Made by a program: the position numbers and the translations under genes. The notes beneath the pieces were generated by a model that did no database searches, was not told where the DNA came from, and worked only from the letters and a program-made list of their open reading frames with translations. A DNA stretch of 64,000 nt from Escherichia coli 042 (GTDB taxonomy: Bacteria > Pseudomonadota > Gammaproteobacteria > Enterobacterales > Enterobacteriaceae), in the NCBI RefSeq assembly GCF_000027125.1, contig NC_017626.1. One strand, written 5' to 3'. The first letter of the stretch is position 1. Every line of letters begins with the position of its first letter. Positions 3,384 to 24,483 of the stretch are shown piece after piece.

Positions 3384-3746
3384 GGGGCTGATTCTGGATT
3401 CGACGGGATTTGCGAAACCCAAGGTGCATGCCGAGGGGCGGTTGGCCTCGTAAAAAGCCGCAAAAAATAGTCGCAAACGACGAAAACTACGCTTTAGCAG
3501 CTTAATAACCTGCTTAGAGCCCTCTCTCCCTAGCCTCCGCTCTTAGGACGGGGATCAAGAGAGGTCAAACCCAAAAGAGATCGCGTGGAAGCCCTGCCTG
3601 GGGTTGAAGCGTTAAAACTTAATCAGGCTAGTTTGTTAGTGGCGTGTCCGTCCGCAGCTGGCAAGCGAATGTAAAGACTGACTAAGCATGTAGTACCGAG
3701 GACGTAGGAATTTCGGACGCGGGTTCAACTCCCGCCAGCTCCACCA
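3384..3746 (+). ncRNA. ssrA: tmRNA (SsrA), 363 nt
   Basis: Starts GGGGCTGATTCTGGATTCGACGGGATTTGCG. It contains the tag reading frame gcaaacgacgaaaactacgctttagcagcttaa (ANDENYALAA*). It ends in the tRNA-like T-arm cgcgggttcaactcccgccagctccacca. Confidence 0.98.
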
Positions 3747-3858: not shown

Positions 3859-3911
3859 TGGGACCCTTATATGGACCCACCGACTGGGTCCAATAATTTG
3901 AGGGTCCAATA
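3859..3911. promoter_or_regulatory. cluster of GGACCC/GGGTCC motifs immediately upstream of int (possible Int/Xis or autoregulatory sites)
   Basis: tGGGACCC (3859-3866). Inverted pair TGGACCCAccgacTGGGTCCA (3872-3892). Direct repeat GGGTCCAAT at 3886-3894 and 3902-3910, ending 3 nt before the int ATG. Confidence 0.3.
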
Positions 3912-3912
3912 C

Positions 3913-5142
3913 ATGGCAAGGCAGACTAAAAAACTCACAGACACTGAAATCAAAAACACCAAACCAGCAGACAAAGAGATCAATCTCTTCGATGGTGATG
4001 GGCTACTGCTACGAATCGCTCCTTCATCAAAAGGAGGGAAGAAGAACTGGTATCTCAGATATCCAGTGCCAGTAACCAAGAAGCGCACCAAGATGAGCTT
4101 GGGTACCTACCCTCACCTCTCATTAGCAAAGGCAAGAGCTTTGCGTGATGAATACCTGTCGTTACTTGCTAATGGTGTTGACCCTCAAGTCCACATCACT
4201 GAAAAAACTAATGCTCTGAAAGATGCCACGGAGCACACGCTACAAGCAGTTTCTCGAAAGTGGTTAGATGAGAAAATTAAGACTTCTGGCATCTCTCTAG
4301 ACCATGCAGAAGATATCTGGCGCAGCCTCGAAAAAAACATCTTTTCAACTCTGGGTGATGTTCCTATCAAAGAGATCCGCCCCAAAATGCTCAAGCAGCA
4401 TCTTGACCCAATTGAGCAGCGCGGTGTTCTCGAAACTCTACGTCGTATAATTTCCAGACTGAATGAAATCTTTCGCTATGCTGCCACGGAAGAGCTTATA
4501 GAGTTCAATCCTGCCGACAATCTCGCTCAGCGTTTCAGTAAACCTAAGAAGCAAAACATGCCTGCCCTTCCACCTGATGAGCTACCACGCTTCATGGTTG
4601 CTTTATCTAACGCATCTATACGGTTAGAAACCCGTATGCTGATCGAGTGGCAATTGTTGACGTGGGTAAGGCCCGGTGAAGCCGTTCGGGCAAGATGGTG
4701 TGATATTGATGAAGAGAGCAGATTTTGGAATATCCCTTCAGAATTCATGAAAATGAAACGCCCACATAAGGTTCCATTGAGTAAAGAAGCTCTCCGCATT
4801 TTAGAAAACATGCGCCCTATCAGTGGTCATAGAGAATGGGTTTTCCCCAGCATCAAAGCTCCCCTCAGTCATATGCATGAACAAACAGCTAATGCAGCCA
4901 TAATTCGTATGGGGTTTGGCGGAGAGCTTGTTGCTCATGGTATGAGATCTATTGCAAGGACAGCAGCCGAAGAATACGGTAAGTTTAGAACGGAGGTGCT
5001 TGAATCCGCTCTGGCTCATACTAAAAAAGATGAAATAATAGCCGCGTATAACCGTTCGGAATACCTAGTTGAAAGAGAAGAACTAATGAAATGGTGGGGG
5101 GATTATGTCAGCAGCAAAAAATATAAGATGATGGCAGCATAA
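3913..5142 (+). CDS. P4-type tyrosine recombinase/integrase
   Basis: The N-terminus MARQTKKLTDTEIKNTKPADKEINLFDGDGLLLRIAPSSKGGKKNWYLRY is the typical P4/IntA-family arm-binding domain. The C-terminal catalytic region has ...VAHGMRSIARTAAEE... and ...ALAHTKKDEIIAAYNRSEY (R..HxxR..Y pattern). ATG 3913 is preferred over the track start 3871. Confidence 0.9.
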   Translation: MARQTKKLTDTEIKNTKPADKEINLFDGDGLLLRIAPSSKGGKKNWYLRYPVPVTKKRTKMSLGTYPHLSLAKARALRDEYLSLLANGVDPQVHITEKTNALKDATEHTLQAVSRKWLDEKIKTSGISLDHAEDIWRSLEKNIFSTLGDVPIKEIRPKMLKQHLDPIEQRGVLETLRRIISRLNEIFRYAATEELIEFNPADNLAQRFSKPKKQNMPALPPDELPRFMVALSNASIRLETRMLIEWQLLTWVRPGEAVRARWCDIDEESRFWNIPSEFMKMKRPHKVPLSKEALRILENMRPISGHREWVFPSIKAPLSHMHEQTANAAIIRMGFGGELVAHGMRSIARTAAEEYGKFRTEVLESALAHTKKDEIIAAYNRSEYLVEREELMKWWGDYVSSKKYKMMAA

Positions 5143-5163: not shown

Positions 5164-6501
5164 ATGACACAGCATAAGGTGAAAGTAATGAGAATATCAA
5201 AAACATTAGAATCATTATTTACATTTCTAAAGGAAAAAGAGCAGAAAGGTCAACTATTCAATAAAGAGGCTATACTCACAGCCACCGGTTGGAAAGCGGC
5301 TACATTTAGAACTTATTGGGTTAAAGGGCAGTTATCTGACTTTATTAGCGCAATTGATGAAGATACATTTGAGGCATCAAACTGTCAAAACATCTCAGTT
5401 ATAGAGTTTTCGAAACTATTATCTCAAAGTAAGCATAGAAGAGGGTTAGGTCATAATTGCCAGTCGAAACTAGCAAAAGCATTATTAACAAAATCTAGAG
5501 ATAATATGATGCTTGCTCTTGAATTATATAATAGACCTTCAATTGAGAATAGAATGGATGCATTTGTAATGTGTTTTTGCACTTCATGGGAACAATTATT
5601 AAAAGCTATTTTGATTGAAAAAAATGGTGAAGAGTCAATTTTCAAAAAAGAAAACAAGCGAGGATTCAGAGAAACTATTTCACTAAGAGACTGCTTAGAA
5701 AAAACATTCCCATCGAATTCAAAGGTAAGAAATAATATAGAACAAATAACAGTTTTCAGAGATCAGGCTGTACACCTTTTAATGCCAGAAATACAAGGGA
5801 TAGCCTCAAGGATATTTCAGTCTGGCGTTCTTAATTATTCATCATATTTTGAAAAATTCACAGAGGTTTCTTTTCTCAATAACAATAGCACAGGAATGAT
5901 ATCCTTGGTAGGTGAGTTTAGAACACCGCCAATATCCGTACTGAAATCCATTTATGGAGAAGTAGCGACTGATATATTAGACTTAGCAACAACTCTTCAG
6001 CAAGAAGTTGATGATAAAAATGACATAGAGTATGCAATTCCCTTAAATGTAAAACTTGTTTTTGCGACATCAGATGATGATGGGAATACCATAACCTTAG
6101 CTAAAGCTGATGAGGGAATCGAGGGGCTTAAGAAGGCTCTAATTATAGAAAAACCAGTAGATAGATCAAGAACACATCCGTATTTGCAGAAGGATGCCAT
6201 TGAGCATATAAATGAAAAAATCTACGAACTTTATAGTATAGAAAAGATAGAAAAGCATTTAGTATTCAAAGATAACAAAACAGGAAAGAAAGCGATAAAT
6301 AAAAATTGCTTTGATGCTGTTATTTGTAAGAACGGATGGAAAAAATCAAATAATAAATATCATCACAAAAACAATAATCCAGAATACCACTATTATTCAC
6401 CAGCATTAGTAGATGAATTTGTCAAGAAAGCTATGACAAACGAAGATTATCTAATGAATACAAAAAAATGGTATAATGCCAGAAGAAGTAAGAAAAAGTG
6501 A
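5164..6501 (+). CDS. DUF3644-like protein (hypothetical; candidate defence/abortive-infection-associated)
   Basis: 445-aa ORF, very AT-rich. The central segment MMLALELYNRPSIENRMDAFVMCFCTSWEQLLKAILIEKNG...ISLRDCLEKTF...VRNNIEQITVFRDQAVH resembles the DUF3644 pattern as I remember it. ATG 5188 (SD aaggtg) is an alternative start. Confidence 0.6.
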   Translation: MTQHKVKVMRISKTLESLFTFLKEKEQKGQLFNKEAILTATGWKAATFRTYWVKGQLSDFISAIDEDTFEASNCQNISVIEFSKLLSQSKHRRGLGHNCQSKLAKALLTKSRDNMMLALELYNRPSIENRMDAFVMCFCTSWEQLLKAILIEKNGEESIFKKENKRGFRETISLRDCLEKTFPSNSKVRNNIEQITVFRDQAVHLLMPEIQGIASRIFQSGVLNYSSYFEKFTEVSFLNNNSTGMISLVGEFRTPPISVLKSIYGEVATDILDLATTLQQEVDDKNDIEYAIPLNVKLVFATSDDDGNTITLAKADEGIEGLKKALIIEKPVDRSRTHPYLQKDAIEHINEKIYELYSIEKIEKHLVFKDNKTGKKAINKNCFDAVICKNGWKKSNNKYHHKNNNPEYHYYSPALVDEFVKKAMTNEDYLMNTKKWYNARRSKKK

Positions 6502-6835
6502 TGAATAGTGAAACTATGAACAGTACATATCATTTATAAGTGTGCTGTTCATAGTAATTCACAGAACATACTGATTAATTTTATTTTTTCCTAAAACCGG
6601 AAGAAAATAAACCAGTGAAATATTCTTTACATTTAAAATTCGGAGGCCACGGAAATATAAAATCTAATATTAATTACTAATTATATTTATAAAAGGTCTG
6701 CCTCTGACCATTTGAAATGAAAAACAAATCCCAATAATATAGAAAAAAATATCTGATATAATAATTTTGTAGATAAAATAGGCCTATATAAAAACATATC
6801 TTTAATTCCCCCCTTAAAAAGAGGGGCAAATACTG

Positions 6836-7882
6836 TCATTCCTCAAATCTATATAACGCGCCATCAAGATATTCTTCAACAGTATCTATACCGATCCATC
6901 TTCGGTTCAAACTCTCAGCTACAGCACCGGCAGTCATCGACCCACCAAATGGATCAAGAACTAAATCCCCTTCATCTGTAAGCATTTTAATGAAGAATTC
7001 AGGAAGCTGCATAGGGAAACGCGCAGGATGAATTTTGATACCATTAGCTTTACATTTTTTTGTATAAACGTCATTAGCTGCATTATTACCCATTTTCAAT
7101 ACATCAGACGGTGTTTCATCATCAATAAAATTAGGTGGGATAGACCCTCCATTATGGGTTTTATCAAAAGATTCATTAATATTATGTCCTGATGGTCGAA
7201 CAGTAGTTTTAACACCTTTTGCTGCAAGCCGAAGCATGTCCTTGCTATAAGGACGAAGCACTTTTTTATTACTTGCTTTTGGGTGTGGCCCTTTACTAAA
7301 CCAGAAAACATACTCTACAGAATCCTTCACTCGGACTCGTTTGACTGTAACCCATTGAGCAGGTACAGGCATCTTTGCAGGGTTGTACCAGAAAGTCTCT
7401 TGCGCTAGTCTGAATCCTACTTCCTCAACTAAAGCAATAACTAACTTAAAATGATAGATAGATCTAGTTGGCTCACCGGGATTCCAAGAGCCCCCGATGT
7501 TCAAAACGAAACTGCCATCTTCTGTCAGTATCCTTTTGATTTCTTTCGCAAAATCAACAAACCACTCAACGTAGTCCTTCTGACAGACATTACCATATTC
7601 TTTCTTAAAATGAAGTGCATATGGTGGAGATGTGAAGACTAAGTTAACCGAGTTATCAGGTATTGACTTCATCACGTCTAACGAATCGGCGTGGAAGATC
7701 GAACCCAAGTTAGATTCGTAAAACGGTTCAAACCCGTTGACTAACTTTGTAGTTGAATTTTTCTCTTTTGATGAAAAGTCAAGCGTTTTTTGAATAGTCA
7801 CAACAATAAATCTCGAAATGGGCAATCGGATTGCATTGTTGCGTACATAACACAAGGGATCAAGTACAGATGAACCAACCAC
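6836..7882 (-). CDS. beta-class DNA methyltransferase (N4-cytosine or N6-adenine), type II RM
   Basis: Motif IV VFTSPPY lies near the N-terminus. The AdoMet motif [17 protein letters not shown] lies near the C-terminus, which is the beta-class order. The first codon of the maximal ORF is GTG and the true start is unresolved (no ATG before residue 71). Confidence 0.85.
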
Positions 7883-8559
7883 AGGACTTTACAGCTCTTC
7901 TTAACAGCTTAACTCCTCAAGAGCAGCAAATGCTTTTCACGCAACTTCGCGGAAGAATTCCCATCCATCCTCTTGAACAGCAATGGAATATTACAGCAGA
8001 ATTCATTTTAGAAGCCATTGCGCGAAGCCAAGATATCACGAAACGAGGCGTAAGAGGAATCATTGCAGAGCTATGTTTCGATACATATATCATAGGTGCA
8101 ATGAAACATAAGGGCTGGATACAACATCAACTTTTTGGAGATTTACCCTATGATGCACTGATTTCTCATCCTCATGTCGGGGAAATAAAAATACAAACTA
8201 AAAACCAACGACTTGAACGTGGAGTCCCAAAATACGCAAATGGACCAATGATAAAATTCAATCCATATGTCGAAGGTTGGTATGTTTGCGAAACACAGAA
8301 AACGAGGACAGGAAAAAATGCGGAAGGGTTAGATACGAGGCCATATAGATTTGGTGAGTTTGATATACTATCAGTTTGCCTCCATCCGTCATCGGGTGAT
8401 TGGACACGATTCATGTTTTGCCCTGCATATACACTAATGCCAAGAGCGACAAATCCTGAACTAATTGCTGTTTTACAACCAGTACCACCTACACGACAAG
8501 GAAATTGGACTGATAATCTTGAGGAAGCGATTGAATGGCATTTGAACCGTAATCGTTAA
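7870..8559 (+). CDS. putative type II restriction endonuclease (PD-(D/E)xK-like)
   Basis: Divergent from, and abutting, the methyltransferase. The candidate catalytic motif is LPYD(106)[10 protein letters not shown](117)IK(119)IQTK. No recognisable family beyond this. ATG 7870 is the first ATG (the track ORF starts at TTG 7831). Confidence 0.55.
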
Positions 8560-8595
8560 AAACGGGGAATATAGCCAACTATATCTATAATATTA

Positions 8596-8615
8596 AAAGG
8601 GCCTTACGGCCCTTT
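8596..8615 (+). terminator. intrinsic terminator after the nuclease gene
   Basis: aaaGGGCCttacGGCCCtttcgtttt, 37 nt after the stop at 8559. Confidence 0.7.
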
Positions 8616-8619
8616 CGTT

Positions 8620-8720
8620 TTCCCTTAAAGGGAACTCTCCCTTGGAGAGAATACATATCCCCACACTTGGGGCAAATCAATCAGCCCATTGGGCTGTACA
8701 CCACTCCCCATACATGGGGC
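8620..8720. repeat. array of five further mini-hairpins (5-6 bp stems, 3-4 nt loops)
   Basis: TTCCCTtaaAGGGAA (8620-8634). CTCTCCcttGGAGAG (8635-8649). CCCCAcactTGGGG (8659-8672). CAGCCCattGGGCTG (8682-8696). CCCCAtacaTGGGG (8706-8719). The two CCCCA hairpins share the 3' flank GCAA(A)TCA. Confidence 0.6.
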
Positions 8721-9204
8721 AATCAGACACTTCCTGAAGTGAATATCCTCAAGGAACCATTATTAAATATAATATTAAATGTAGATTGTCAAATATATTT
8801 GAATATTTATTAAAAATATATTCACAACGACCAATCACAAATAAATTTAATCCCCCATAAATAATTAGAGGATCAAACCAAGTTCCTGATGCCTTATCTC
8901 TTTTATATCTCATGGTATATGTCTGAATGTCAAAACATGGTATATAACAACCAGAGAGCATTTTTATAGGCTGCTATTATCTGACACTCCTTTCCCCGTT
9001 GCTGTTTCCTATAAAAGAGCCAGAGATAGATAATAGCATTTTTATTTCTATCTTATTCACTCTGGATCGCTCGGCTCACAGCTTATTGGGGCGCTCGGAA
9101 CATCAACATAGGATAAAATACCTACCATTTAAATAAATCATAAGATTATACATGTCAAGATAAAGCATGAAATTATATATAGGTTTATCACGGCTATAGA
9201 TACT

Positions 9205-9516
9205 TCACTCCTGCCTCCCAATCATATCCCCAAGAAACCTTTTTCCTCGTAATTTTAATCTTGCTTTATCTTCAATGCTAATATTCGATAATTGTAATAT
9301 CAGTCCTAATATTAACTCCTTATCTACCTCTTCTACTTTACAGCCCATAGCTTTAGCTACCTCAGCACCAAGGATGATCTTCAAGCGTGTCTCTGCGCTC
9401 TTGGATAGAGATTTTTCTTTACTCTTAAGGCGATTCAGACGCATTTGAGCTGATGCTATTTTTTGCTTAATGGTTTTTTCTGATCTCGGCTTTCTACCTT
9501 TATCATCCGTATTCAT
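9205..9516 (-). CDS. TraD-like conjugal transfer / relaxosome accessory protein
   Basis: 103-aa basic protein. ...ETRLKIILGAEVAKAMGCKVEEVDKELILGLILQLSNISIEDKARLKLRGKRFL resembles the small Ti-type TraD family pattern (K-I-x-LG..V.KA.G ... LlG.LL.L). It is divergent from the relaxase gene across an 835-bp hairpin-rich spacer. Confidence 0.5.
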   Translation of the reverse strand: MNTDDKGRKPRSEKTIKQKIASAQMRLNRLKSKEKSLSKSAETRLKIILGAEVAKAMGCKVEEVDKELILGLILQLSNISIEDKARLKLRGKRFLGDMIGRQE

Positions 9517-9621
9517 AATTACTTTTCCTTCTAGTTGTCAAAAACATGGAATACAATTAAAAAAGGAAAAGGTCAAACCATAGGCAGAAGGTTGAATACT
9601 TTTTATTCCAGATTAAATAAC

Positions 9622-9695
9622 GCAGCGCGAGATGATTGTTCAAAACAATCACATTGCTGGAACAGGGTTCATCCCTGTTAATGATAGGATTCATC
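9622..9695 (+). repeat. twin-hairpin element copy R1 (candidate oriT/recombination site)
   Basis: gcagcgcgagaTGATTGTTcaaAACAATCAcattgctggAACAGGGttcatCCCTGTTaatgataggattcatc. It is repeated at 24950-25023, with 3 substitutions plus 1 indel over the 62-63 nt core. Confidence 0.85.
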
Positions 9696-9937
9696 TCAAA
9701 AAATGATGTTTTGGTTTTAAAAATATGATATTAGTAAGCTCAAAATAAAAACATGCAACACATACGAATGCAGTCACTAACATTAATTACCTGATACTCT
9801 CCGCGTTACTTATTTTATTGAATCAATGAAAACAATTTTACCTCTTGCTTTTTGACTCTGATTTCTGGTCTTAACCTGTGAATTGTGCAACACATAAAAG
9901 TATTTATAATTTTCACTATTTATTTTAAATTCTGCTT

Positions 9938-10276
9938 TCCCGCCTTACGGCGAGAGACTAATTTAACTACTTTTGCCCTTACGGGCGTTTTCTAAACACC
10001 AGAATCCAATATTATTATCCTACCTCAACCGTTTATCCGATTCCTACCTTTTTAATTTCACAGTCTGTAAAACTAGAGCTATTATTTAACTATAGAAAAA
10101 CATAAAACATTGTCGTTATTTTTAGCTCCTTTAGGAGATATAAAAATAAAGCAATGCCCACCTATACACTGCTACGCAGTGTGTGGGGTCTACCGACGGT
10201 TGCCTGCCGCAGGCTAACACCGTTTCCTTCGGAAACAAGGTCAACGTCAACACCAGAGTTTTTCTTACGAAAAACT
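9938..10276. other. hairpin-rich region upstream of the relaxase gene (candidate oriT / ssDNA-structure region)
   Basis: CGCCttacGGCG (9941-9952). GCCCttacGGGC (9975-9986). ACACTGCtacGCAGTGT (10166-10182). Nested ACGGT-tGCCTGccgCAGGCtaac-ACCGT (10196-10223). GTTTCCttcGGAAAC (10222-10236). AGTTTTTCttacGAAAAACT (10257-10276). The TTAC loop recurs. Confidence 0.45.
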
Positions 10277-10351
10277 AAAACCAGCTGAGTCGTATTGGAG
10301 ATTTATATTTTGGTTTGATATTTAAATTTATTTTGAGGTTGTTTTTATTAT

Positions 10352-11860
10352 ATGGCTATTTTTCATCTGGATTTTAAAATTGTGAAACGTTCTGAAGGCA
10401 GATCTTCCGTTGCGAAAGCTGCCTATCATGCTCGTACACGTATAACAGATGAAAGAACAGGTGATACCTATGATTATAGTCGCCGTACCGATTTATACGG
10501 ACATTTCATATTAGCACCAATTAATGCTCCAGAACATATCGTGAAAGACTCTACAGCATTGTGGAATGAAGTTGAAAGAGTTGAGCGCCAGAGCAATGGT
10601 CAAACATCCCGTTATTTCGATGTTGCCATACCTGCCGAGTTAAACAATGACGACAAGAAAAGACTTGTCCTTGAGTATTGTCAGAAAAATTTCGTTGATA
10701 AAGGCATGATTGCCGATATCGCTTTCCACGATCTTGATAGCGATAATCCTCATGCTCACGTTATGTTGACATTAAAAACCATAGGCCCTGAAGGTTTTGG
10801 TAAAAAAGAAAGAAGCTGGAACGACAGAAAAATGTCTGTTATATGGCGTGAATCATGGGCATCTATGGCTAACAGCTACCTTGCTGCCGCTGGCTCGTCA
10901 GAACGTATTGACCATCGTTCTCTTCAGGCCCAGCATGAAGAGGCATTAGAAAAAGCGGCGGTAGCTTTAGATAATGAAGAAAAAGCGCTATGGCTTGCTA
11001 AAGCCGCTGAAACAAACCGTCCTCCAATGAAGCGTATCCATAGTGCCAAATGGCGTAGTAAAGCAGCACAAGAGCAAAGAGCAGCAGAACAGGCTGTTCG
11101 TGATGCTGCCAAGCAGGAAGCGGTTGAAGTCTACAAGACTTTCAGCGAACTTGATCTTGAAATCGTCGTTGATGTCAGAAGCTTCACCGTGGCTGCTCTT
11201 GCTGAACCAGAAGAGATTGTATTACCAGAAACGCGCTCCGGCTCTTCTTCTCATGAAGCACAAAGTCCTGTATTGGTAGCGCCTATTCCTCATACTCATG
11301 TGCGTGGAGTTAAATCTTACCGCGATAAAGAAAAAGTGAGTAAAGTTGTCATTAATAATATATCAGAACCAAATGTTGCTGATGCTGACATAAACACTCT
11401 TTGGAAAACATCTCCATCTAAAACCAAAAATATGGCATCCAAAAGTACCGCTGAAAGTGTTAAAAGGAAACAGGCTAATCCGCGTCAGGATAATATCTTT
11501 AAACGCTTTACAACGCTTTTGATCGGTTTCTTCAAAGAGAAATTTATATGGGCTAAGAAGAAACCTGATCCTACCGAGATTGAACATGACAGGCATGTAG
11601 CAGAAAATTACGTCTTTGATGAAGTGCTGGGTGTCTATGTATCACGCGCTGACCATGAACAACGAGCCAGATTCAACGGTGATGATAAAGAGTTCTCTGG
11701 TTACAAGCCAACACCTGATGAGATTAAGCGTTTTCCAAGCCGTCTAGCTAATACAGCACAAACTGATAGAGAGCTCGACTACATGCCTTCGCTCGTGGCT
11801 GATAAGAAATCGTTAGCACCTAAATTGAAACCAAATGCTCCCTATAAAAATAGATTATAA
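10352..11860 (+). CDS. MobA/MobL-family (MOBQ-type) relaxase
   Basis: The N-terminus MAIFHLDFKIVKRSEGRSSVAKAAYHARTRITDERTGDTYDYS carries the catalytic Tyr region. The histidine triad HDLDSDNPHAHVMLT is present. The C-terminal half is low-complexity and no primase or helicase motifs are seen. Confidence 0.88.
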   Translation: MAIFHLDFKIVKRSEGRSSVAKAAYHARTRITDERTGDTYDYSRRTDLYGHFILAPINAPEHIVKDSTALWNEVERVERQSNGQTSRYFDVAIPAELNNDDKKRLVLEYCQKNFVDKGMIADIAFHDLDSDNPHAHVMLTLKTIGPEGFGKKERSWNDRKMSVIWRESWASMANSYLAAAGSSERIDHRSLQAQHEEALEKAAVALDNEEKALWLAKAAETNRPPMKRIHSAKWRSKAAQEQRAAEQAVRDAAKQEAVEVYKTFSELDLEIVVDVRSFTVAALAEPEEIVLPETRSGSSSHEAQSPVLVAPIPHTHVRGVKSYRDKEKVSKVVINNISEPNVADADINTLWKTSPSKTKNMASKSTAESVKRKQANPRQDNIFKRFTTLLIGFFKEKFIWAKKKPDPTEIEHDRHVAENYVFDEVLGVYVSRADHEQRARFNGDDKEFSGYKPTPDEIKRFPSRLANTAQTDRELDYMPSLVADKKSLAPKLKPNAPYKNRL

Positions 11861-12097
11861 ATGATAATATAATTCCCAAAAATATATCTTTCCCCTAAAG
11901 ATTGACCATATCATATACTAAATAACATCATGACTATATTCCTAAGTACTCAAAACCTTGAATTCTATCAACTAAAATGGTATATTATTTTGTTTTTTTG
12001 ATTTTCAATTGCATTGTGATAAGATATTTCATACATTGATTGAGAATATTAAAGAAACGATAATGTATCTTACTTTCATCAATTAGTCGAGGTTATC

Positions 12098-12628
12098 ATG
12101 TCAACTCCTGAGGATGCTTTCAAAAAAAAATTACTAGCTGCTCAACAAGAAAAAGATGAACTTGTTAGGAAAAATCAAATTGATGCAGAGCGTAAAAAAC
12201 AAATCATTGCTGAAAAAATTAGTTTTTATCAAAAACACCAAAATGATTTCATACAACAAGTTATTGAATGGGCCAGTAGTGCAGATTTAAATATCTCATC
12301 ACTTAACATTAGTTATTACGATTATGGTCATTTATTTCAAACAACAGGCATAAGCATTGAATATGATGGTAAAAAAGTTCAGTTTATTCCGCAAGGAGTA
12401 GAACGTGGAACTTTTCTAGGTATCATAAAATTAGATTTTACTAACGCAAATTCATTCATTCAATACTATTTCGGTTTGTCTGCCAATAAAAATGAAGCCG
12501 AACCATATTGGACTTTTGTTCAATATGATACTCAAAACCCTAGTGCTTGGCAGGAAAACTCAAAGCGCATGTCAAAAGAGCTATTCTTTGAAATAATTGA
12601 AAGTATATTACTTCCACCAAAATCATGA
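12098..12628 (+). CDS. hypothetical protein (N-terminal coiled coil)
   Basis: 176-aa ORF with an SD-like gaggt upstream, followed by a 10-bp-stem hairpin. No family recognised. Confidence 0.6.
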   Translation: MSTPEDAFKKKLLAAQQEKDELVRKNQIDAERKKQIIAEKISFYQKHQNDFIQQVIEWASSADLNISSLNISYYDYGHLFQTTGISIEYDGKKVQFIPQGVERGTFLGIIKLDFTNANSFIQYYFGLSANKNEAEPYWTFVQYDTQNPSAWQENSKRMSKELFFEIIESILLPPKS

Positions 12629-17097: not shown

Positions 17098-17505
17098 ATG
17101 TCTGATGCTTTAAAGATCATCAACAATATTCGTACTCTCCGTGCTCAGGCTCGTGAACTGACACTCGAAACCTTGGAAGAGATGTTAGAAAAACTCACTA
17201 TCGTTGTAGAAGAACGTCGTGAAGAAGAGGCCTCATTTCTAAAACAGCAGGAAGAGAAACAGGCCAAGCTGGAAGCATTCCGTCAGAAGTTGTTGGAAGA
17301 TGGCATAGACCCGGCAGAGTTGCTTTCAACTGTTAGCCCATCTTCTTCCAAGACAGGAGCGAAACGCGCCCCACGTCCAGCTAAGTATAAATATGTTGAT
17401 ACCGATGGTTCGGAAAAGACGTGGACAGGTCAGGGCCGAACTCCTCGTGCTATCGCTGCTGCGCTCGAAGCCGGTAAGACACTGGAAGATTTCGAGATCA
17501 AGTAA
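17098..17505 (+). CDS. H-NS family nucleoid-associated protein (island-encoded full-length paralogue)
   Basis: [44 protein letters not shown]... is the N-terminal oligomerisation domain. The C-terminal DNA-binding motif is [17 protein letters not shown]. 135 aa. It is distinct from the core stpA at 50350-50754. Confidence 0.92.
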
Positions 17506-18324: not shown

Positions 18325-19578
18325 TTATTCACTTGCCTGAGTCGCTCTTGTCGCATTTGTTTTTAAATTATTCAGCATTTGCTTATCAACCGGTTGCAGT
18401 TGTTGTCCTAACAGAGCCGCAAGCAAAATATTTGTGTCTTCTGTTCTTTCGATTTGAAGCATTTGTAATCTTAAATCAAGTGCCTGCATTCTTGCCTGCT
18501 CATGCGCAGTTTCTTTTTCATCAGCACTACTGATTTTTACCTGCCAAGCGTCAGCACCTGTTGTATCTGCATAGCGTGAATAGATCTCATATCTTAACAT
18601 TTCCCACTCTGAAGGATTATCCGGGAATGTTGTGCCGGGAAATAAGGTCGCATACTTGTTTTTTACGGAAGCATCTGACCAAGCAAGGTTTGCTCCCTGC
18701 GTAGAGCCCAATGTGGATCCTATTTTGGCCCCTCTGGAGTTCACTGATATATTACTTGCTTTTTTCATTGCCAGTACGGAATCAATGGCGTTTGTTCCAG
18801 CAGTGCTTCTGGAGACAAAGCTCGAAAAGGCCGATAAATATTCTCGACCTTCATTTGTGTCTTCTAATCCTTTGTTCTTCAATGGTTCAACGGGCAAGTT
18901 CCCTATAAGATTTCTTTTTGCCGCTTCAGCAACCTCAATCTGCTCAACAGAATAGGACTGATTCGAAACCTTATTAGACAATGCATCGGATTTAGATAAT
19001 GGTGGTGTAATCAGGCTTGATGCCGACTTATCTTTATCAGGATACTGACCTATAGTATTACACCCACCTCTGTTATATTTCACATCATCTTCGGAGCAAA
19101 CATTTATTGATACTCTGCCCATGATGTTTTTCTTGGCCTCATTTATTCTGGTATTTGCTTGTGTAAACATCTTAACGCTGTTTTCAGATAAAGCCTCTTT
19201 AGCTGAGCTTGTATTCGATCCTGCTGCACCACGACCACCTGCGCTCGTGACTTCTTCACAGGCGTTGGCATCAGGTATTCTGTTTAAGATATTTTTCATG
19301 CGCTGTTCTTGGATTGCCTGACTGGCATTACTGACAACCGCATTCTTCTGATTCTCACTGGCTGTTATGGTTGCTTGTGCCAGCTTGTCGTTCATTGAGA
19401 CTAATGTTTCAATTATTCCATTGCCCATAGATTGGGGTGAAGCCCCCATAAGATACGGTGTCAAAACCTCTTCTGTGACGGGCCAGACAGCGAAAGCTGT
19501 ATTTGTATATAATACAGAAAAACACAAAGCTGAAACCACTGTTATTCTCTTTACTTTAAATTTATTATTACTCATCAC
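18325..19578 (-). CDS. secreted/periplasmic protein, unknown (possibly IcmX/TraW-like partner of the TraY-like protein)
   Basis: 417 aa with signal peptide MMSNNKFKVKRITVVSALCFSVLYTNTAFA|V. It is Cys-containing, Ser/Asn/Ala-rich and has a C-terminal coiled coil. The functional guess rests only on neighbourhood and general features. Confidence 0.6.
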   Translation of the reverse strand: MMSNNKFKVKRITVVSALCFSVLYTNTAFAVWPVTEEVLTPYLMGASPQSMGNGIIETLVSMNDKLAQATITASENQKNAVVSNASQAIQEQRMKNILNRIPDANACEEVTSAGGRGAAGSNTSSAKEALSENSVKMFTQANTRINEAKKNIMGRVSINVCSEDDVKYNRGGCNTIGQYPDKDKSASSLITPPLSKSDALSNKVSNQSYSVEQIEVAEAAKRNLIGNLPVEPLKNKGLEDTNEGREYLSAFSSFVSRSTAGTNAIDSVLAMKKASNISVNSRGAKIGSTLGSTQGANLAWSDASVKNKYATLFPGTTFPDNPSEWEMLRYEIYSRYADTTGADAWQVKISSADEKETAHEQARMQALDLRLQMLQIERTEDTNILLAALLGQQLQPVDKQMLNNLKTNATRATQASE

Positions 19579-19948: not shown

Positions 19949-22609
19949 TCACATTCCATCATTACCTTCTTTTGATGATGAACTACCACCGGAAGATCCA
20001 CTACCGCTCCCTTTCTCTGGAGCCTTAAAGCTTTCAATTGGTGAAGCTTGGGCCTGTAAACTTACAGGCAGCAACGGTCTGTTATGTTCACCAAACGATA
20101 CCGCTCTGTTAGCAGCCTTTTGAGCTACATTCATATAACCTGCTGCGCCTGCTGTATCACCAATAGCATCTGCTGCCTCAGCTGCATGGTAAGCCGAGTT
20201 AGCACTTTCAAGAGACTGATATTCATCCTGCTGATCAAGTGGGCCAGCATTACTCATATGAGTTCTGAATGCAGATCCCGTATCATTGGCTTTATTAGCC
20301 GCCAGTGCTTTCCCCTGTTGAGCCTGTTGCTGTTGTTGAAGCTCACGTTGCTGTTCACGGTCTTTGTTAATTTGCGCATTCCTGATCTGATTACCCATCG
20401 CATTTGAGGTATGGGAAACCTGATCCAACACGGTTTTGGTAAACATAGCACCTTCAACACCTTTTGATGCCGACTGTGCGTAACCCGACATGCTCTGACC
20501 ACCATGAACACCAAGCCACTTCATAATTTCATCAGGGATGATGTGAATCAGTGAAAGTGATTTCTTCACTACCGTGAACATCATTGCAATATAAACAGCA
20601 ATGAGAGCCAGTGACTCGATGATACCTATCCCGGCATTGGCTGACATCATGCCAAAAGCGCCGGAGAATGTTTCGTTGACGATCCCACCAAGGATAGGGA
20701 GCATCGTATAGGCTGCTATTAATCCTGTTATCATTAGCGCTGGTCGCATGGTTAACGATAAAACCAGACCATAACCAGCGCCACCACGACCCACTACGCC
20801 ATCACCATCTGGATGTAAATGTGTTATTACCCATAATGGTGCTGCGACCATTGCTTCAAGGCACAGGATCATCCAGCCTACGCAAACACCAAACCACATG
20901 ACGTAAGGCAGCATAGGAATGACGACGGCTAAAGTATCGCCAGCTATCCATAAAGGGATAACCAGTGGCATAACAATCCCCATAGCGCCAAATGCACCCG
21001 ATACCCAGCTTGCAGTCGCTGATGTCCATGCGCCAAGACCTGCCCCAACAACAGCAGAACTCCCTAATAACGTCCAGCCAGCGGCACTGATCGTATCCCC
21101 AAGCCCTTTAACAGCTAATAACGGGTTTATTGCCTGTAAATTGGCAGCGGTTGTGTCCGTCGAGAACGAGACGATTTTCCCTTGTTTTCTTCCATTGATA
21201 ACGCTGGAACTGAGAAAACCCGCCATTGCACCAGAAATGCTCTTATTGGCTTCACTTTGAAGAGAAGAAACTATTTTTCCAGCATCATCTGTTTTAGGGC
21301 CTACACCACTTTTACCACTGGTATTGGCTTCCGTTCGGTTTTGCGCATCAATACCATTCGCATATCTTGAAGCTGTCGTTGATTTCGCCATATCTTGAGC
21401 CACTTTTGCCATAATCGCGTTCAGGCTGTTATCGAATATATCTCCGTATTCCATTGTCGCTTGCCCGGCTACAGGAAGATTATGAGCTGCTCCATTAATC
21501 GCATCCTGCACACGGATCAGTTTCATACTCCATGCGCCAGCCATAAACCATCCGTCTTTCTGGACATTCTCTTTGAAATCATCCCACTGGTCGCCAGTGG
21601 AGAAAACTGTTCGTACTGCAGTATCAATAATGGATACATATGAGGCCGTTGCGCTGTTTATTCCGGTCTGAATATCAATATTATTATCGGCCACATACTG
21701 TTCAGCCAGCGTTTTCATACTATTATCAAGGCCGATAAATGCGGCATTGTGTGCCTCAATAACATCTGAAATATTCGTCTTTATATCCTGTGGCATATAA
21801 GCCATATACATGCCGCCAGCAGCAATGGTAGCCTGAGCTTTAGCCTGTTCGTCATAAGAAGCTTTGGCCTTCGGGTCTGTAAGCGTGATGCTTCCACATG
21901 CAGCCTTGGATACCAGTAAATTTTTATTCATATCATTACCGGCATTGCTGGCTCCATAACTGTATGTGTATAAATAGGCACCTTTCTCCGGTGTCATTTC
22001 AAACGCAGGCGTGACGTGCGGGAAGGGATCGGCTGCTGCTGATTTCTTCCATAATTCTCCCGCCTTTAACATACAGACGTTATTGATAAAGGCGGTTTTC
22101 GCTATGCGATCAAGCTCCTGATAAGATGCAGATGTGGTAATAACAGCCCCATCTGAGGGGTTGGATGCATAGGTATTCCAGACGGTATCTGCCAGACCGA
22201 CTCCCTGATTAATCATCCACAGCACCATAACCTGAGCGGCACAGAAACCACCTGCTGCCGGGAGTATCATTGCCGTGCCTAATGCAGTTCTTACGGGCAA
22301 CCACATGGAAGACCATTTCTTACCCAGCATTTCTCCGTCATGTGCCGTTGACATGGTTCCGGCAATCAGTGTGTAGGCAGCTAAAATGCCACCAACCAGT
22401 AAAACAGCGCTGTTAAGGATTGTCATTGTGCTGGCTAAGGGACTTTCCGCTAAATTGTCCGGGAATAAGATATCCAGAAACCACAGCTTTGATTTGTCTG
22501 TCTCCGGGACGGTAAATAAATCTGCGGCATAAGCTGACTGAGTTAATAACAGGCAAGCTAATATTACTAATAATATCGATACTTCTTTTTTCTTTATATT
22601 TATCATCAT
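19949..22609 (-). CDS. DotA/TraY-family type IVB secretion integral membrane protein (orphan)
   Basis: 886 aa with an N-terminal signal/TM. The conserved-looking block is ...TAHDGEMLGKKWSSMWLPVRTALGTAMILPAAGGFCAAQVMVLWMINQGVGLADTVW..., followed by a long periplasmic-like region, then about 6 C-terminal TM segments and a Q-rich/Gly-Ser tail. The pattern matches what I remember of IncI TraY and Legionella DotA. Confidence 0.7.
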   Translation of the reverse strand: MMINIKKKEVSILLVILACLLLTQSAYAADLFTVPETDKSKLWFLDILFPDNLAESPLASTMTILNSAVLLVGGILAAYTLIAGTMSTAHDGEMLGKKWSSMWLPVRTALGTAMILPAAGGFCAAQVMVLWMINQGVGLADTVWNTYASNPSDGAVITTSASYQELDRIAKTAFINNVCMLKAGELWKKSAAADPFPHVTPAFEMTPEKGAYLYTYSYGASNAGNDMNKNLLVSKAACGSITLTDPKAKASYDEQAKAQATIAAGGMYMAYMPQDIKTNISDVIEAHNAAFIGLDNSMKTLAEQYVADNNIDIQTGINSATASYVSIIDTAVRTVFSTGDQWDDFKENVQKDGWFMAGAWSMKLIRVQDAINGAAHNLPVAGQATMEYGDIFDNSLNAIMAKVAQDMAKSTTASRYANGIDAQNRTEANTSGKSGVGPKTDDAGKIVSSLQSEANKSISGAMAGFLSSSVINGRKQGKIVSFSTDTTAANLQAINPLLAVKGLGDTISAAGWTLLGSSAVVGAGLGAWTSATASWVSGAFGAMGIVMPLVIPLWIAGDTLAVVIPMLPYVMWFGVCVGWMILCLEAMVAAPLWVITHLHPDGDGVVGRGGAGYGLVLSLTMRPALMITGLIAAYTMLPILGGIVNETFSGAFGMMSANAGIGIIESLALIAVYIAMMFTVVKKSLSLIHIIPDEIMKWLGVHGGQSMSGYAQSASKGVEGAMFTKTVLDQVSHTSNAMGNQIRNAQINKDREQQRELQQQQQAQQGKALAANKANDTGSAFRTHMSNAGPLDQQDEYQSLESANSAYHAAEAADAIGDTAGAAGYMNVAQKAANRAVSFGEHNRPLLPVSLQAQASPIESFKAPEKGSGSGSSGGSSSSKEGNDGM

Positions 22610-23470: not shown

Positions 23471-24235
23471 CTAAATATTATCCCAATCTAACGGTTCTTC
23501 TGGTGGCACAAGACTTGTGTTCTCTACAGAAGGGATTTCATTTATACTTTCACTCTTCACTAACCCTTGAGACTTTTTAGCCTGCAATCTTGCGATTAAC
23601 AAATCTATCTCATCTTGGTTATTAACTTCTTGTATAACTGCTTCAATTGACCTGTTTTTATCTTTAAGTATGCTATTGCCACCGCCATTGACGACTATGC
23701 TTTCGGGTTGTTCTTCCATTGCTTCTTTCTTTTTTATAATCTCTGATACAAAGCGAGCACGATCACCATTGAAGACAATAGCAGGGTTTATGAAATACCA
23801 GTTTTTCTCATTGGTTTTAGCAATAATACGTTTTTCGATGAGTTCTTTGATACCTCTGTAAAAGATAGATTCAGACAAAACAAAGTGATCTATCTTTTCC
23901 GCAAGAGACATTGCCTTTTTACAGCTCAGGTAGAAATGATCTTTGCCTATCGCATCCTGATATATTCGTAAAAATATGAAAAACACTTTGTATGCTGTTT
24001 TCGTGAGATCAAAATATGCTTTTATCTGAGAGGTATAGAGTTTAATGAACTCTTCTTTATCGACCTCTTGTGTATGCACGATATTGGCGAAGTAGCTTTT
24101 ACCTGTATCTTTCTTTTCGATAAGTTCTGTGCCTCTTGAAACGGTCAGATTTTTCTTTCGTGTTTCAATCTTTAGCTCTGTCTCAAAGCAAAAAGGATTT
24201 AACCCTAAATCTAAGTCAACGTCTATTTCATTCAT
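23471..24235 (-). CDS. RepL-like winged-helix protein (candidate replication initiator/regulator) 1
   Basis: 254 aa. ...FVLSESIFYRGIKELIEKRIIAKTNEKNWYFINPAIVFNGDRARF... resembles the RepL-family pattern (wHTH followed by 'y.iNP...f.G'). A 4-unit iteron array lies 170-250 bp upstream. Confidence 0.55.
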   Translation of the reverse strand: MNEIDVDLDLGLNPFCFETELKIETRKKNLTVSRGTELIEKKDTGKSYFANIVHTQEVDKEEFIKLYTSQIKAYFDLTKTAYKVFFIFLRIYQDAIGKDHFYLSCKKAMSLAEKIDHFVLSESIFYRGIKELIEKRIIAKTNEKNWYFINPAIVFNGDRARFVSEIIKKKEAMEEQPESIVVNGGGNSILKDKNRSIEAVIQEVNNQDEIDLLIARLQAKKSQGLVKSESINEIPSVENTSLVPPEEPLDWDNI

Positions 24236-24401
24236 TTCATTATTACCTCTTGTTGTTTTATTTATAATAAATTAAATACCATGCACAAAAAAGATATCAA
24301 GTTTTTTGCATATTTTTTTGCGAAAATATTTTCAAAATCGCAACTATTCCAGTGACGATACTTTAAAGCACTGTCGTTTTTAAGCTAAAAATGACATAGA
24401 A

Positions 24402-24483
24402 ACTGACTGCAAAGTCAGGAAAGCTCACCGTGCAGTCAGGAATACTGACTATAGAGTCAGGAACACTGACTGTACGGTCAGTC
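24402..24483. repeat. iteron array 1: four tandem 20-21 bp units, each an inverted repeat ACTGAC-N5-AGTCAGGA
   Basis: ACTGACtgcaaAGTCAGGAa / gctcaccgtgcAGTCAGGAat / ACTGACtatagAGTCAGGAac / ACTGACtgtacGGTCAGTCgt. Unit starts are at 24402, 24423, 24443 and 24463. Confidence 0.85.

Follow-up and report, generated by a model that had tools for sequence, protein, structure and literature searches.

The analyzed window, a 64,000-nucleotide stretch of Escherichia coli 042 DNA, harbors a MOBQ relaxase gene and, pointing away from it, a small traD-like gene, which are separated by a non-coding and hairpin-rich spacer of 835 bp (positions 9517-10351; Table 1). This divergent arrangement, already proposed in a sequence-only reading, is confirmed by the two open reading frames and by profile matches to PF06412 for the traD-like product and to PF03389 and NF041496 for the relaxase.

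Table 1. Positions in the window of the mobilization module, its hairpins and neighboring island features
Feature	Positions	Strand	Remarks
ssrA	3384-3746		followed by P4-type integrase gene
End of traD transcription unit	8596-8745	-	six short hairpins (8617-8745), then intrinsic terminator (8596-8615)
traD-like gene	9205-9516	-	103 aa, pI 10.1
R1 twin hairpin	9633-9685		hairpins 9633-9651 and 9661-9679
Inverted repeats, G+C-rich TTAC-loop hairpins	9938-9955 and 9974-9987		first, 7 bp; second, terminator-like on +
Promoter-like site, relaxase gene	10057-10085	+	TTCACA-17-TATTAT
Weaker divergent promoter-like site	10116-10089	-	
Predicted oriT core	10100-10290	-	best-conserved stretch of the locus (46 loci compared), consecutive hairpins
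Inverted repeat, hairpin Ha	10108-10156		CATTG...CAATG; inner 10116-10124 / 10141-10149 and 10126-10137; starts at the predicted nick
Nic-like core	10152-10166	-	5'-TATAGGTGGG/CATTG-3'
Inverted repeat, putative recognition hairpin Hb	10157-10187	-	inner stem 10166-10172 / 10176-10182
Hb outer stem	10157-10161 / 10183-10187		CCCAC/GTGGG
Inverted repeat, hairpin Hc	10188-10197		
Inverted repeat, hairpin Hd	10202-10214		
Inverted repeat, hairpin He	10222-10236		optional, with or without it in different loci
GTCAAC, two copies	10240-10251		
Inverted repeat, hairpin Hf	10257-10276		8-bp stem, TTAC loop
MOBQ relaxase gene	10352-11860	+	502 aa
Relaxase domain	10352-10939	+	residues 1-196
Truncated H-NS gene	26423-26719		
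AlpA-type excisionase (RDF) gene	28281-28514		
DUF6387 gene	28655-29521		

Relaxase, TraD-like protein and the ssrA island

The relaxase consists of an N-terminal relaxase domain and a C-terminal region of ~300 residues in which no domain was recognized. Pfam MobA_MobL (PF03389) matches residues 17-196 (E 2e-56, 192 bits against a cut-off of 26.7), and the NCBIfam MobQ equivalog NF041496 scores 259.7 bits over a cut-off of 200, which assigns the protein to the MOBQ family; the TraA_Ti model TIGR02768 reaches 180 bits on the N-terminus, under its own cut-off. As no second domain was detected, the relaxase has no primase or helicase, in agreement with the previous claim. When the protein is aligned to the solved MOBQ domains of NES (4HT4) and MobA (2NS6), Tyr25 falls in their N-terminal Tyr region and the His motif HDLDSDNPHAH (residues 126-136) is likewise in register; the two correspond to the single catalytic Tyr near the N-terminus and the metal-binding His motif of the family. 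The sequence-only reading had located both the Tyr region and the His motif, but its pattern HxDxDNPHxH implies 10 residues where the protein has 11. The closer solved relative is NES of pLW1043 (E 5e-26), with RSF1010 MobA (2NS6) as a weak match (E 9e-7). Among plasmids, the closest relaxases belong to small E. coli MobQ and MobC plasmids, with 50% identity over the domain.

The TraD-like protein matches Pfam TraD (PF06412) over residues 38-95 (E 7e-13, 48.6 bits against a cut-off of 22.3) and PHROG 24342 (E 1e-49). BLASTP against the Ti-type TraD of pArA4 gave no alignment, so that the homology holds at the profile level only, and our search found no relative of solved structure. The traC and traG companions of the Ti operon are absent beside the gene. 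In a comparison set of 46 Enterobacterales loci, tblastn placed a traD homologue upstream of the relaxase gene in 34, on the opposite strand every time. The terminator at the 3' end of the traD unit has an 8-bp stem and a GUAA loop on the - strand, and is bidirectional. The hairpin array and terminator are kept downstream of traD in five other loci, with two doubly compensated pairs and eight pairs that use G.U on the - strand.

The two genes and the spacer constitute the mobilization (relaxosome) module of an integrative mobilizable island at ssrA on the E. coli chromosome. EARL islands, exemplified by the island of E. coli SF-088, Salmonella Enteritidis ROD21 and ICEKp258.2 (Pina-Iturbe et al. 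2018, PMC6035254), carry a TraD and MobA/MobL pair, and the transfer of ROD21 uses a helper plasmid (PMC6035254). Similar to them, the ssrA island possesses a TraD homologue paired with a MobA/MobL relaxase, a comparable layout (integrase, restriction-modification, traD, mobQ, lipoproteins, Rep-like gene, H-NS, AlpA-type RDF and DUF6387), and an AlpA-type RDF gene with an adjacent gene of ~850 bp in addition to H-NS homologues, of which a full-length one is also listed in the RefSeq annotation of a 99.9%-identical locus. The ssrA island and the EARL/ROD21-like islands share one mobilization lineage; the relaxases of the window and of the SF-088 EARL island are 75% identical overall and almost identical over the first ~260 residues. 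However, the island differs from EARL members in several respects. It sits at ssrA and not at the 3' end of tRNA-Asn with a direct repeat, and its integrase and DUF6387 protein are only 32% and 34% identical to those of SF-088, respectively. It carries DotA/TraY-family and TraW-family genes and an AIDA-type autotransporter gene. Moreover, the pilin and pilV genes that adjoin traD in SF-088 and plasmid-borne relatives are absent; RefSeq lists neither at the 99.9%-identical locus, and the scanned open reading frames yielded no pilin or PilV match.

Islands bearing the module occur in 787 of 5,426 complete E. coli genomes (~14%), always on the chromosome, and in many other Enterobacterales. The module is an unexceptional representative of a family of islands that is already known, and the standard pipeline gives both of its genes correct annotations (RefSeq labels at the 99.9%-identical locus: ‘MobQ family relaxase’ and ‘conjugal transfer protein TraD’). 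This family, which holds Salmonella ROD21 and ICEKp258.2 of K. pneumoniae ST258, comprises islands associated with virulence and fitness. The sequence-only reading had missed the ssrA-integrated EARL/ROD21-type island, as well as the 190-bp core and the recurrence of R1 described below.

A conserved core and a predicted nick site

Within the spacer, we predict that the functional core is the 190-bp block at 10100-10290, narrower than the whole spacer. Alignments of spacer blocks, which used 43-45 of the 46 loci, included a distant group, in which the relaxase-domain DNA is 76-79% identical to that of the window; compared to this value, the 66 nt at 10150-10215 are 83-98% identical in the same group. 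The block is 89% identical in the SF-088 EARL island. In E. coli it was found at 847 places and the relaxase gene at 826, the block travelling with the gene. Orphan oriT copies as a common E. coli feature were accordingly discarded, as was mimicry of the oriT of a conjugative plasmid, since no more than 3 of 72,556 plasmids contain the block, and all three have a MobQ gene of their own next to it. We also rejected a hidden small gene in the spacer, because the open reading frames of 40-48 residues are broken by indels in homologues.

That the island is an immobile relic, in which the hairpins are leftovers or ordinary terminators, seems quite unlikely. In its favor are the loss of pilin and pilV, which canonical EARL islands carry on the flanks of traD, the missing small gene (an unrelated gene upstream of traD in the distant group, with no trace in the window), an attR-type direct repeat of the ssrA 3' end that was not found within the 64-kb window, and the bidirectional terminator formed by one TTAC-loop hairpin. 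On the other hand, both open reading frames are intact, with the presumed catalytic Tyr25 and His triad in place, and the first 260 residues of the relaxase are nearly those of SF-088. In addition, the non-coding core is more constrained than coding DNA across the 46 loci, and at least 90% of the E. coli copies retain block and relaxase gene together.

At least eight inverted repeats lie within 9938-10276, where the earlier count had been at least six. Folding of 10100-10300 as single-stranded DNA gave z = -5.5 on either strand, and hairpins with stems of at least 5 bp reach ~10 per kb in this region, the remainder of the window having 3.1 per kb. The top of hairpin Hb is swapped among homologues, reading ACACTGC-TAC-GCAGTGT or ACACTCAC-TTCG-GTGAGCGT; the majority variant pairs fully on the - strand only, via a G.T wobble, and the loop is flipped to the other strand in two loci. 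In the distant group, Ha is replaced at the same place by a 7-bp CATTGTT/AACAATG hairpin, so that the structure is kept while length and sequence differ. In five loci, two pairs of Hc are doubly compensated (GTC/GAC to CCC/GGG), and Hc is 100% paired. The stem of Hf is nearly invariant among homologues, whereas its loop varies (19 TTAC, 22 TTGC, 1 TTTC, 2 TGAC, 2 TGGC and 1 TTGA). As most base pairs of the block are invariant, covariation support is thin, consisting of the two Hc pairs and the Hb swap.

The strand antisense to the relaxase gene reads hairpin-ATAGGTGGG/CATTG. RSF1010 is nicked at TAAGTGCG/CCCT, 3' of an inverted repeat (PMC4814116), and we took a MOBQ-type oriT to be an inverted repeat followed ~8 nt on by a nic core of this kind on the relaxase-antisense strand. 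The - strand of the window presents such an arrangement, the hairpin arm running into the nic core as GCAGTGT-A-TAGGTGGG/CATT, from which we predict a nick between 10157 and 10156. Of the 9 nucleotides of RSF1010 TAAGTGCGC, the window has 7 in common and the distant group 8. The distant group also shares 11 of 11 nucleotides with ATAAGTGGGCA, the core predicted for pMARC3/pMOS6. Nic motif and 5' hairpin further agree with the MOBQ consensus and a predicted MOBQ3 oriT, pMARC3/pMOS6 reading ATAAGTGGGCACTT (PMC3832669). The G after GTG in the window departs from the canonical GTGCG/C. TARGTGSGC has one match in the 64-kb window, namely this core, with 1.6 expected, so that the 9-mer alone is insignificant; what lends it weight is where it lies and how well it is conserved.

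The same motif, spacing and orientation are found in a Ti-type plasmid (ATAATTGCGCCCTT, with the presumed cut ATAATTGCG/CCCT) and in a small E. coli MobQ plasmid (ATAAGTGCGCACTT, with the presumed cut ATAAGTGCG/CACT). The literature search found neither a usable Ti nic sequence nor a staphylococcal GTGCGCCCTTACGGG string, and the Ti-type sequence was therefore taken from the plasmid record; nor did it find a description of a mapped oriT for EARL/ROD21-like islands. In all comparators a hairpin immediately precedes the motif, which is carried by the strand antisense to the relaxase gene.

A nick elsewhere in the spacer appears very unlikely. One candidate, TTTTG/CCCTTACGGGCG on the + strand (9971-9987), is similar to Gram-positive MOBQ nic regions in their 3' half (GCG/CCCTTA) and has the 7-bp hairpin 9938-9955 upstream; the Gram-positive oriT consensus NcgtNtaAgtGCGCcCTta has CCCTTA in common with 9976-9981 (PMC10333310). 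However, 9965-9975 lacks TAAGTG, the 5' half that serves recognition, the distance from hairpin to site is ~20 nt instead of 8-9, and the two hairpins are separated by a variable stretch. One locus (L035) has moreover lost hairpin 9974-9987, which is hence not essential. A second candidate, on the + strand 3' of hairpin 10257-10276, profits from an almost invariant stem, but the two groups do not agree in sequence beyond 10276. Either site would put the nick on the relaxase-sense strand, whereas RSF1010 and Ti have it on the other one.

It is also unlikely that block 10100-10290 is mainly a structured 5' leader or promoter-operator of the relaxase gene, with the nick elsewhere or with the leader as the main cause of conservation. 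The promoter-like site at 10057-10085 would leave a leader of ~260 nt that includes the whole block, and part of the conservation could thus be related to RNA or promoter function. Both hexamers and the 17-nt gap are kept in the distant group (TTTACA-17-TATTAA) with a different spacer sequence, one Hb variant has a UUCG loop on the + strand, and the fold is equally strong on that strand. Nevertheless, a leader would account neither for a MOBQ nic motif that follows a hairpin in canonical position and orientation nor for the wobble pairs confined to the - strand, and an Rfam scan of 8000-12500 at E values up to 5 returned two chance-level matches only and no known RNA family. As the promoters of RSF1010 and Ti overlap oriT, the leader and oriT readings are not exclusive.

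Comparison with plasmid systems and a proposed mechanism

Protein domains, divergent synteny, the conserved hairpin-plus-nic motif and the match to RSF1010-type, Ti-type and small MobQ plasmids support a Ti/RSF1010-style MOBQ module with a putative oriT in the spacer, as the sequence-only reading had suggested; the motif lies on the same strand as in the comparators. In Ti plasmids oriT is located between traA and traCDG, is related to that of RSF1010 and shows stronger conservation than the Tra proteins do (PMC4700958). The module resembles the Ti/Ri Dtr region (traA - oriT - traC traD traG, MOBQ2) in that a divergent relaxase gene and a PF06412 TraD gene flank the predicted oriT, in the nic strand being antisense to the relaxase gene, and in a hairpin followed by ATAgGTGgG/C compared to ATAAtTGcG/C in Ti. 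By contrast, the relaxase has 502 residues and no helicase domain, compared to ~1100 residues in Ti; TraC and the TraG coupling protein are missing, extra hairpins occur between nick and relaxase gene, and the module resides in a chromosomal island of Enterobacterales instead of a repABC plasmid.

RSF1010/R1162 (IncQ, MOBQ1; mobA - oriT - mobC) has an identical topology and strand logic, a single-Tyr relaxase with an H-x-H motif, and a 5' inverted repeat followed by TAAGTGCG/CCCT, corresponding to TAGGTGGG/CATT in the window. It differs in the primase fused to its MobA and in having MobB and MobC in place of TraD as accessory proteins. The small E. coli MobQ and MobC plasmids (~4 kb, for example NZ_CP141203.1) share the position and orientation of GATTGT-ATAAGTGCG/CACTT, whereas their accessory gene is mobC and their oriT region, which is plasmid-borne, spans ~180 bp compared to 835 bp.

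We propose that, upon excision of the island, the MOBQ relaxase binds hairpin 10157-10187 and cuts the - strand ~9 nt 3' of the inner stem, at 10157/10156, within 5'-TATAGGTGGG/CATTG-3', Tyr25 becoming covalently joined to the 5' end. As an oligonucleotide, the predicted cleavage substrate of the relaxase domain would be 5'-CCCACACACTGCGTAGCAGTGTATAGGTGGGCATTGCT-3'. The relaxase would then pilot the nicked strand through the T4SS of a co-resident conjugative element, since the island lacks a coupling protein or complete T4SS; neither a coupling protein nor VirB4 was found among island open reading frames of at least 150 residues. Transfer would proceed away from the relaxase gene, such that the traD side is the first part to reach the recipient and the relaxase gene the final one, and the hairpin, being the last to transfer, would serve termination and re-ligation. 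The TraD-family protein may act as an accessory factor and as an autorepressor of the divergent promoters beside the nick, similar to TraC/TraD of Ti and MobC of RSF1010. The other G+C-rich hairpins with GNRA or GNA caps might stabilize the transferred single-stranded DNA, the traD-sense RNA, or both. We assign a probability of about 80% to this reading as a whole, namely an ssrA-island mobilization module whose relaxase nicks the - strand at 10157/10156 for transfer by a helper T4SS. The module itself will not surprise a specialist, and the new part is the nick site predicted to the base. Together with the 190-bp core, this prediction offers a testable handle on island mobilization and on helper plasmids, and the conserved core provides a sequence signature for locating such islands.

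TTAC-loop hairpins and the R1 element

All four TTAC-loop hairpins previously described are present, at 8596-8615 (8 bp), 9941-9952, 9975-9986 and 10257-10276 (8 bp). Four in 1.8 kb compares to 0.07 expected under a first-order Markov model, and none of 5000 simulations reached three; the 64-kb window contains five, four of them in or around the module. Loops of the GNRA or GNA type in the region number six on the - strand and none on the + strand, compared to 38 and 29, respectively, in the rest of the window. The clustering and strand bias lend partial support to the proposal that a conserved loop on freely varying stems reflects selection for structure. At each site, however, the pattern between homologues is the reverse, the stem being kept while the loop changes, and 8596-8615 is simply a terminator. 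The loops drift mostly as TTNC, which is GNAA on the - strand, and ~10-15% of loops are not GNRA. In the close group, the hairpins at 9938-9987 are conserved with TTAC, TTGC, TTTC, TCAC or TAC loops. On the strand predicted to be nicked, C(GNRA)G or C(GNA)G loops are seen at 8596-8615, 9938-9987, 10166-10182, 10222-10236 and 10257-10276.

R1 proved to be two hairpins as described, with the sequences TGATTGTT-CAA-AACAATCA and AACAGGG-TTCAT-CCCTGTT, and is probably a protein-binding operator. It recurs in the island as a 96%-identical copy at 24961-25013 and as a half copy at 25102-25121. It is doubtful that the transferred strand has its strand-biased caps by design, forming with the six-hairpin array ultra-stable mini-hairpins of a leading region, and that R1 couples transfer to replication. 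Were this so, the capped hairpins could prime complementary-strand synthesis, be single-strand promoters or protect the incoming DNA, and R1, which occurs both in the oriT spacer and in the Rep-like region with iterons at 24.2-25.7 kb, would link transfer to island replication. In homologues the arms of R1 are conserved and its loops vary; many loci have it ~700 nt upstream of the start codon (ATG) of the relaxase gene, and second copies are located close to Rep-like genes.

Relaxase, TraD-family gene and the island that carries them

The sequence-only reading described a Ti/RSF1010-style mobilisation module, in which divergent TraD-like and MOBQ relaxase genes flank an oriT-like spacer, and this is real and, in its main point, correctly interpreted. 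An ORF check placed both genes and the 835-bp spacer where that reading had them, and a domain search of the 502-aa relaxase revealed MobA_MobL/MobQ and no other domain, in agreement with its claim that no primase or helicase is attached. The relaxase exceeds the cut-off of the NCBIfam MobQ equivalog. Among solved structures, the NES relaxase domain (4HT4) aligns best (E 5e-26), and RSF1010 MobA (2NS6) also aligns (E 9e-7); both alignments include Tyr25 and the motif HDLDSDNPHAH (residues 126-136).

Features of the module and its island (window coordinates, unless a locus is named)
Feature	Position	Strand	Details
ssrA (tmRNA)	3384-3746		ARAGORN
P4-type tyrosine integrase gene	3871-5142		
DUF3644 gene	5164-6501		
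N6/N4 DNA methyltransferase gene	6836-7882	-	
ORF	7831-8559	+	242 aa
TTAC-loop hairpin	8596-8615		loops across homologues: TTAC 3, TTTC 3, ATAC 1
TraD-family product	9205-9516	-	103 aa, basic, pI 10.1; Pfam TraD PF06412 match, E 7e-13
Twin hairpin R1	9633-9685		
TTAC-loop hairpin	9941-9952		loops across homologues: TTAC 32, TAC 5, TCAC 1, TAAC 1
TTAC-loop hairpin	9975-9986		loops across homologues: TTAC 21, TTGC 2, TTTC 2, TCGC 1, TGAC 1, ATAC 1
Promoter-like site TTCACA-17-TATTAT	10057-10085		upstream of relaxase gene
Weaker divergent promoter-like site	10116-10089	-	
Hairpin Hb	10157-10187		
Hairpin Hc	10188-10197		
TTAC-loop hairpin	10257-10276		loops across homologues: TTAC 19, TTGC 22, TTTC 1, TGAC 2, TGGC 2, TTGA 1
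MOBQ relaxase	10352-11860	+	502 aa; MobA_MobL match over residues 17-196, E 2e-56
H-NS family gene	about 17098-17505	+	full-length
TraW-family gene	18325-19578	-	
DotA/TraY-family gene	19949-22609	-	
H-NS paralogue	26423-26719	-	truncated: N-terminal domain only, 98 aa
AIDA-type autotransporter adhesin gene	30281-34984	-	1567 aa; near island's far end
Small gene upstream of traD (example)	L049:3789-4046	-	position of Ti traC

The ssrA gene of the E. coli chromosome is immediately followed by the integrase gene, and the module therefore sits within a genomic island integrated at ssrA. In RefSeq, a locus of E. coli AHB1 with 99.9% identity bears the annotations ‘MobQ family relaxase’ and ‘conjugal transfer protein TraD’; the island around it also encodes H-NS paralogues, a DUF6387 protein, an HTH regulator and members of the DotA/TraY and TraW families. 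Among 5,426 complete E. coli genomes, 787 match the 3.1-kb module, at 904 places, every one of them chromosomal; among 72,556 plasmids, only 3 do. A scan of ORFs of at least 150 aa found neither a coupling protein nor a complete T4SS in the window's island, which is therefore mobilisable, not conjugative. The TraW- and DotA/TraY-family genes, whose families are IncI/type IVB secretion components, stand isolated without the rest of a T4SS, and related islands have IncI-type PilV and pilin genes adjoining traD. Together, these genes hint at an IncI-type plasmid as helper, its apparatus possibly modified by the island, much as SGI1 substitutes IncC subunits.

The EARL/ROD21-like family of islands, defined by integration at tRNA-Asn, shares an excision module, a TraD homologue with a MobA/MobL relaxase, type IV pilin genes and H-NS paralogues (PMC6035254). 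Its authors considered these islands mobilisable and mentioned a ‘cognate oriT’ that was not mapped (PMC6035254), and the later EARL RDF paper makes no mention of oriT. In the SF-088 EARL island, a block 89% identical to window 10100-10290 lies upstream of a relaxase 75% identical to the window's, with the first 260 residues nearly identical, and the gene order runs parallel. However, the integrase is only 32% identical and the DUF6387 protein 34%, and the window's island differs from EARL in its integrase and attachment site and is devoid of the pilin genes. The comparison with SF-088 thus makes the window's island a relative with a common mobilisation lineage and general layout. Annotation and the EARL literature already account for a module of this kind. 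New here are the limits of the predicted oriT core, a nic prediction to the base that gives the strand and the direction of transfer, a more cautious view of the TTAC loops and the recognition of R1 as a repeated island element.

The truncated and full-length H-NS genes correspond to the pair described for EARL islands (PMC6035254). The interval between integrase and module (5164-8559) looks like a variable defence-cargo position, the equivalent slot in SF-088 being occupied by a type III restriction-modification system. The AIDA-type gene is missing from the otherwise near-identical AHB1 island.

Conserved block and predicted nick site

A genome scan with the relaxase yielded 46 loci from genera of the Enterobacterales (among them Brenneria, Yersinia, Enterobacter, Citrobacter, Klebsiella, Pectobacterium, Dickeya, Serratia, Photorhabdus and Xenorhabdus), 34 of which have a traD-like gene upstream of the relaxase gene on the opposite strand. 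Spacers of the close group (relaxase 70-96% identical) are mostly collinear, with lengths of ~700-840 bp; those of the distant group (~60% identical) are longer, often with an additional small gene before traD. This ~85-aa gene (L020-L033, L042-L044 and L049) is immediately upstream of traD, with which it overlaps, has no Pfam or PHROG match, and is not present in the window or the close group.

When the 300 nt preceding the relaxase ATG are aligned, a single block stands out as near-invariant in every locus; it corresponds to window 10100-10290. Between the distant group and the window, the relaxase-domain DNA is 76-79% identical, compared to 83-98% for the 66 nt of 10150-10215, where most differences amount to a swapped hairpin top. 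Judged by its distribution, the block is a cis element of its own relaxase, because it occurs at 847 places in E. coli against 826 for the relaxase domain, and all three plasmid copies lie directly upstream of a MobQ gene. Since it tracks the relaxase gene in both E. coli and plasmids, a mimic of some plasmid's oriT is ruled out.

Read antisense to the relaxase gene, the window's block is 5'-CCCAC ACACTGC GTA GCAGTGT ATAGGTGGG CATTG-3', and that of the distant group 5'-...GTGAGTGT ATAAGTGGG CATTG-3'. The RSF1010 substrate in experimental use is CAGTTTCTCGAAGAGAAACCGGTAAGTGCG/CCCTCCC (PMC4814116), the published MOBQ consensus is NWACCNNTAAGTGCGCCCTYNN, and the predicted oriT of the MOBQ3 plasmids pMARC3/pMOS6 starts with ATAAGTGGGCACTT (PMC3832669). 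A 4-kb E. coli MobQ plasmid, the relaxase of which is the closest plasmid relative (50% identity), reads ...GATTGT ATAAGTGCG CACTTCG, and a Ti-type plasmid record has ACGTCGC GCCA GCGACGT ATAATTGCG CCCTTGG between traA and traC-traD-traG. In the RSF1010-type record, mobA/mobB lie on one side, and the nic strand and mobC are co-directional. All comparators have the motif directly after a hairpin, on the strand antisense to the relaxase gene and pointing toward the accessory gene. The window has exactly this topology of hairpin, motif, strand and orientation. From the alignment we predict a nick between 10157 and 10156 on the minus strand, with 5'-CCCACACACTGCGTAGCAGTGTATAGGTGGGCATTGCT-3' as the predicted cleavage substrate of the relaxase. 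The argument draws on position, conservation, adjacent hairpin and orientation combined; the 9-mer TARGTGSGC has a single match in the window against 1.6 expected, which is not significant alone.

Both hexamers and the spacing of the promoter-like site upstream of the relaxase gene are retained in the distant group (TTTACA-17-TATTAA) despite its differing spacer sequence. The distance from the relaxase promoter down to the predicted nick would thus be ~65 nt, which fits a relaxosome acting as repressor of its own divergent promoters; for Ti TraA/TraC/TraD, such repression is reported in work cited in PMC4700958. Given this arrangement, the reading of the block as a structured leader is a partial rival that does not exclude an oriT core.

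Folding strand and hairpin loops

The region 10100-10300 folds much more stably than shuffled sequences (z = -5.5), and hairpins around the module are ~3 times as dense as elsewhere in the window. Covariation is sparse because most base pairs of the block are invariant. In Hc, GTC/GAC is replaced by CCC/GGG in five loci, with every cell still paired. The top of Hb is exchanged wholesale (TGC-TAC-GCA versus TCAC-TTCG-GTGAGC); its majority variant is fully paired only on the minus strand, with a G.T wobble there and an A.C mismatch on the plus strand, and one locus has a fully compensated form. In the close group, the hairpin starting at the predicted nick (CATTG...CAATG, 10108-10156) is long and rich in A+T; its distant-group counterpart is a 7-bp CATTGTT/AACAATG hairpin. 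In the hairpin 9938-9955, the window's own mismatch is a G.T wobble on the minus strand only. These wobbles and structure-keeping changes favour the minus strand as the one that would fold, in agreement with the strand predicted to be nicked and transferred.

The four TTAC-loop hairpins of the sequence-only reading are present as described, being four of only five in 64 kb; for their 1.8-kb stretch 0.07 were expected, and none of 5000 simulations reached three. At every TTAC site the stem is kept among homologues and the loop drifts, so that TTAC itself is not fixed. Most loop variants read on the minus strand as GNRA (GTAA, GCAA, GAAA, GTGA and GCGA) closed by C-G, with a non-GNRA share of about 10-15% among counted loops, and the module region has two further minus-strand triloops, C(GTA)G and C(GAA)G. 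When closed by C-G, loops of the GNA and GNRA types have unusual stability in both DNA and RNA. The module region has six GNRA/GNA loops on the minus strand and none on the plus strand, compared to a balanced 29 on plus and 38 on minus in the rest of the window. As a counter-example to a strict strand bias, two loci (L034 and L036) have a flipped top of the nic-proximal hairpin Hb (equivalent to 10166-10182; GC-GTA-GC instead of GC-TAC-GC), which puts the GNA loop on the other strand; one Hb variant has UUCG on the plus strand. Half of the distinct loop variant types keep GNRA versus one third expected from random single changes, a weak signal, uncorrected for phylogeny. The suggested selection for a structure is thus partly right: a strand-biased preference for stable caps exists, but between homologues the conserved elements are the stems, not the TTAC loop. 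Such caps are compatible with ssDNA of the transferred strand or with a traD-sense RNA.

Stretch 3' of traD and repeated elements

The 8596-8615 hairpin is an ordinary bidirectional intrinsic terminator. On the minus strand, 8596-8745 has six short hairpins in succession and then this terminator, at a distance of about 460-590 nt downstream of traD. Five other loci conserve the stretch at 83-89%, in a position nearer to traD. Two of its pairs are doubly compensated, and eight rely on a G.U that exists on the minus strand alone. It has no Rfam match, and may represent a structured 3' UTR of the traD unit or a small RNA from it.

R1 recurs at 24961-25013 with 96% identity, plus a half copy at 25102-25121, within a long intergenic region (24236-25692) between divergent genes at 23471-24235 (minus strand) and 25693-26391 (plus strand). 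This region has iteron-like repeats, GTCAGGAA four times at about 24401-24485 and TATAAC-type at about 25394-25485. The product of 25693-26391 weakly matches a ‘replication initiation O-like’ PHROG, and in SF-088 the corresponding position is taken by a RepL gene. The region looks like a replication or regulatory region with an operator in common with the oriT spacer. In addition, the spacer has two copies of an 11-nt direct repeat, TGCAACACATA (9754-9764 and 9886-9896); both are largely kept in the close group and may represent a protein-binding site.
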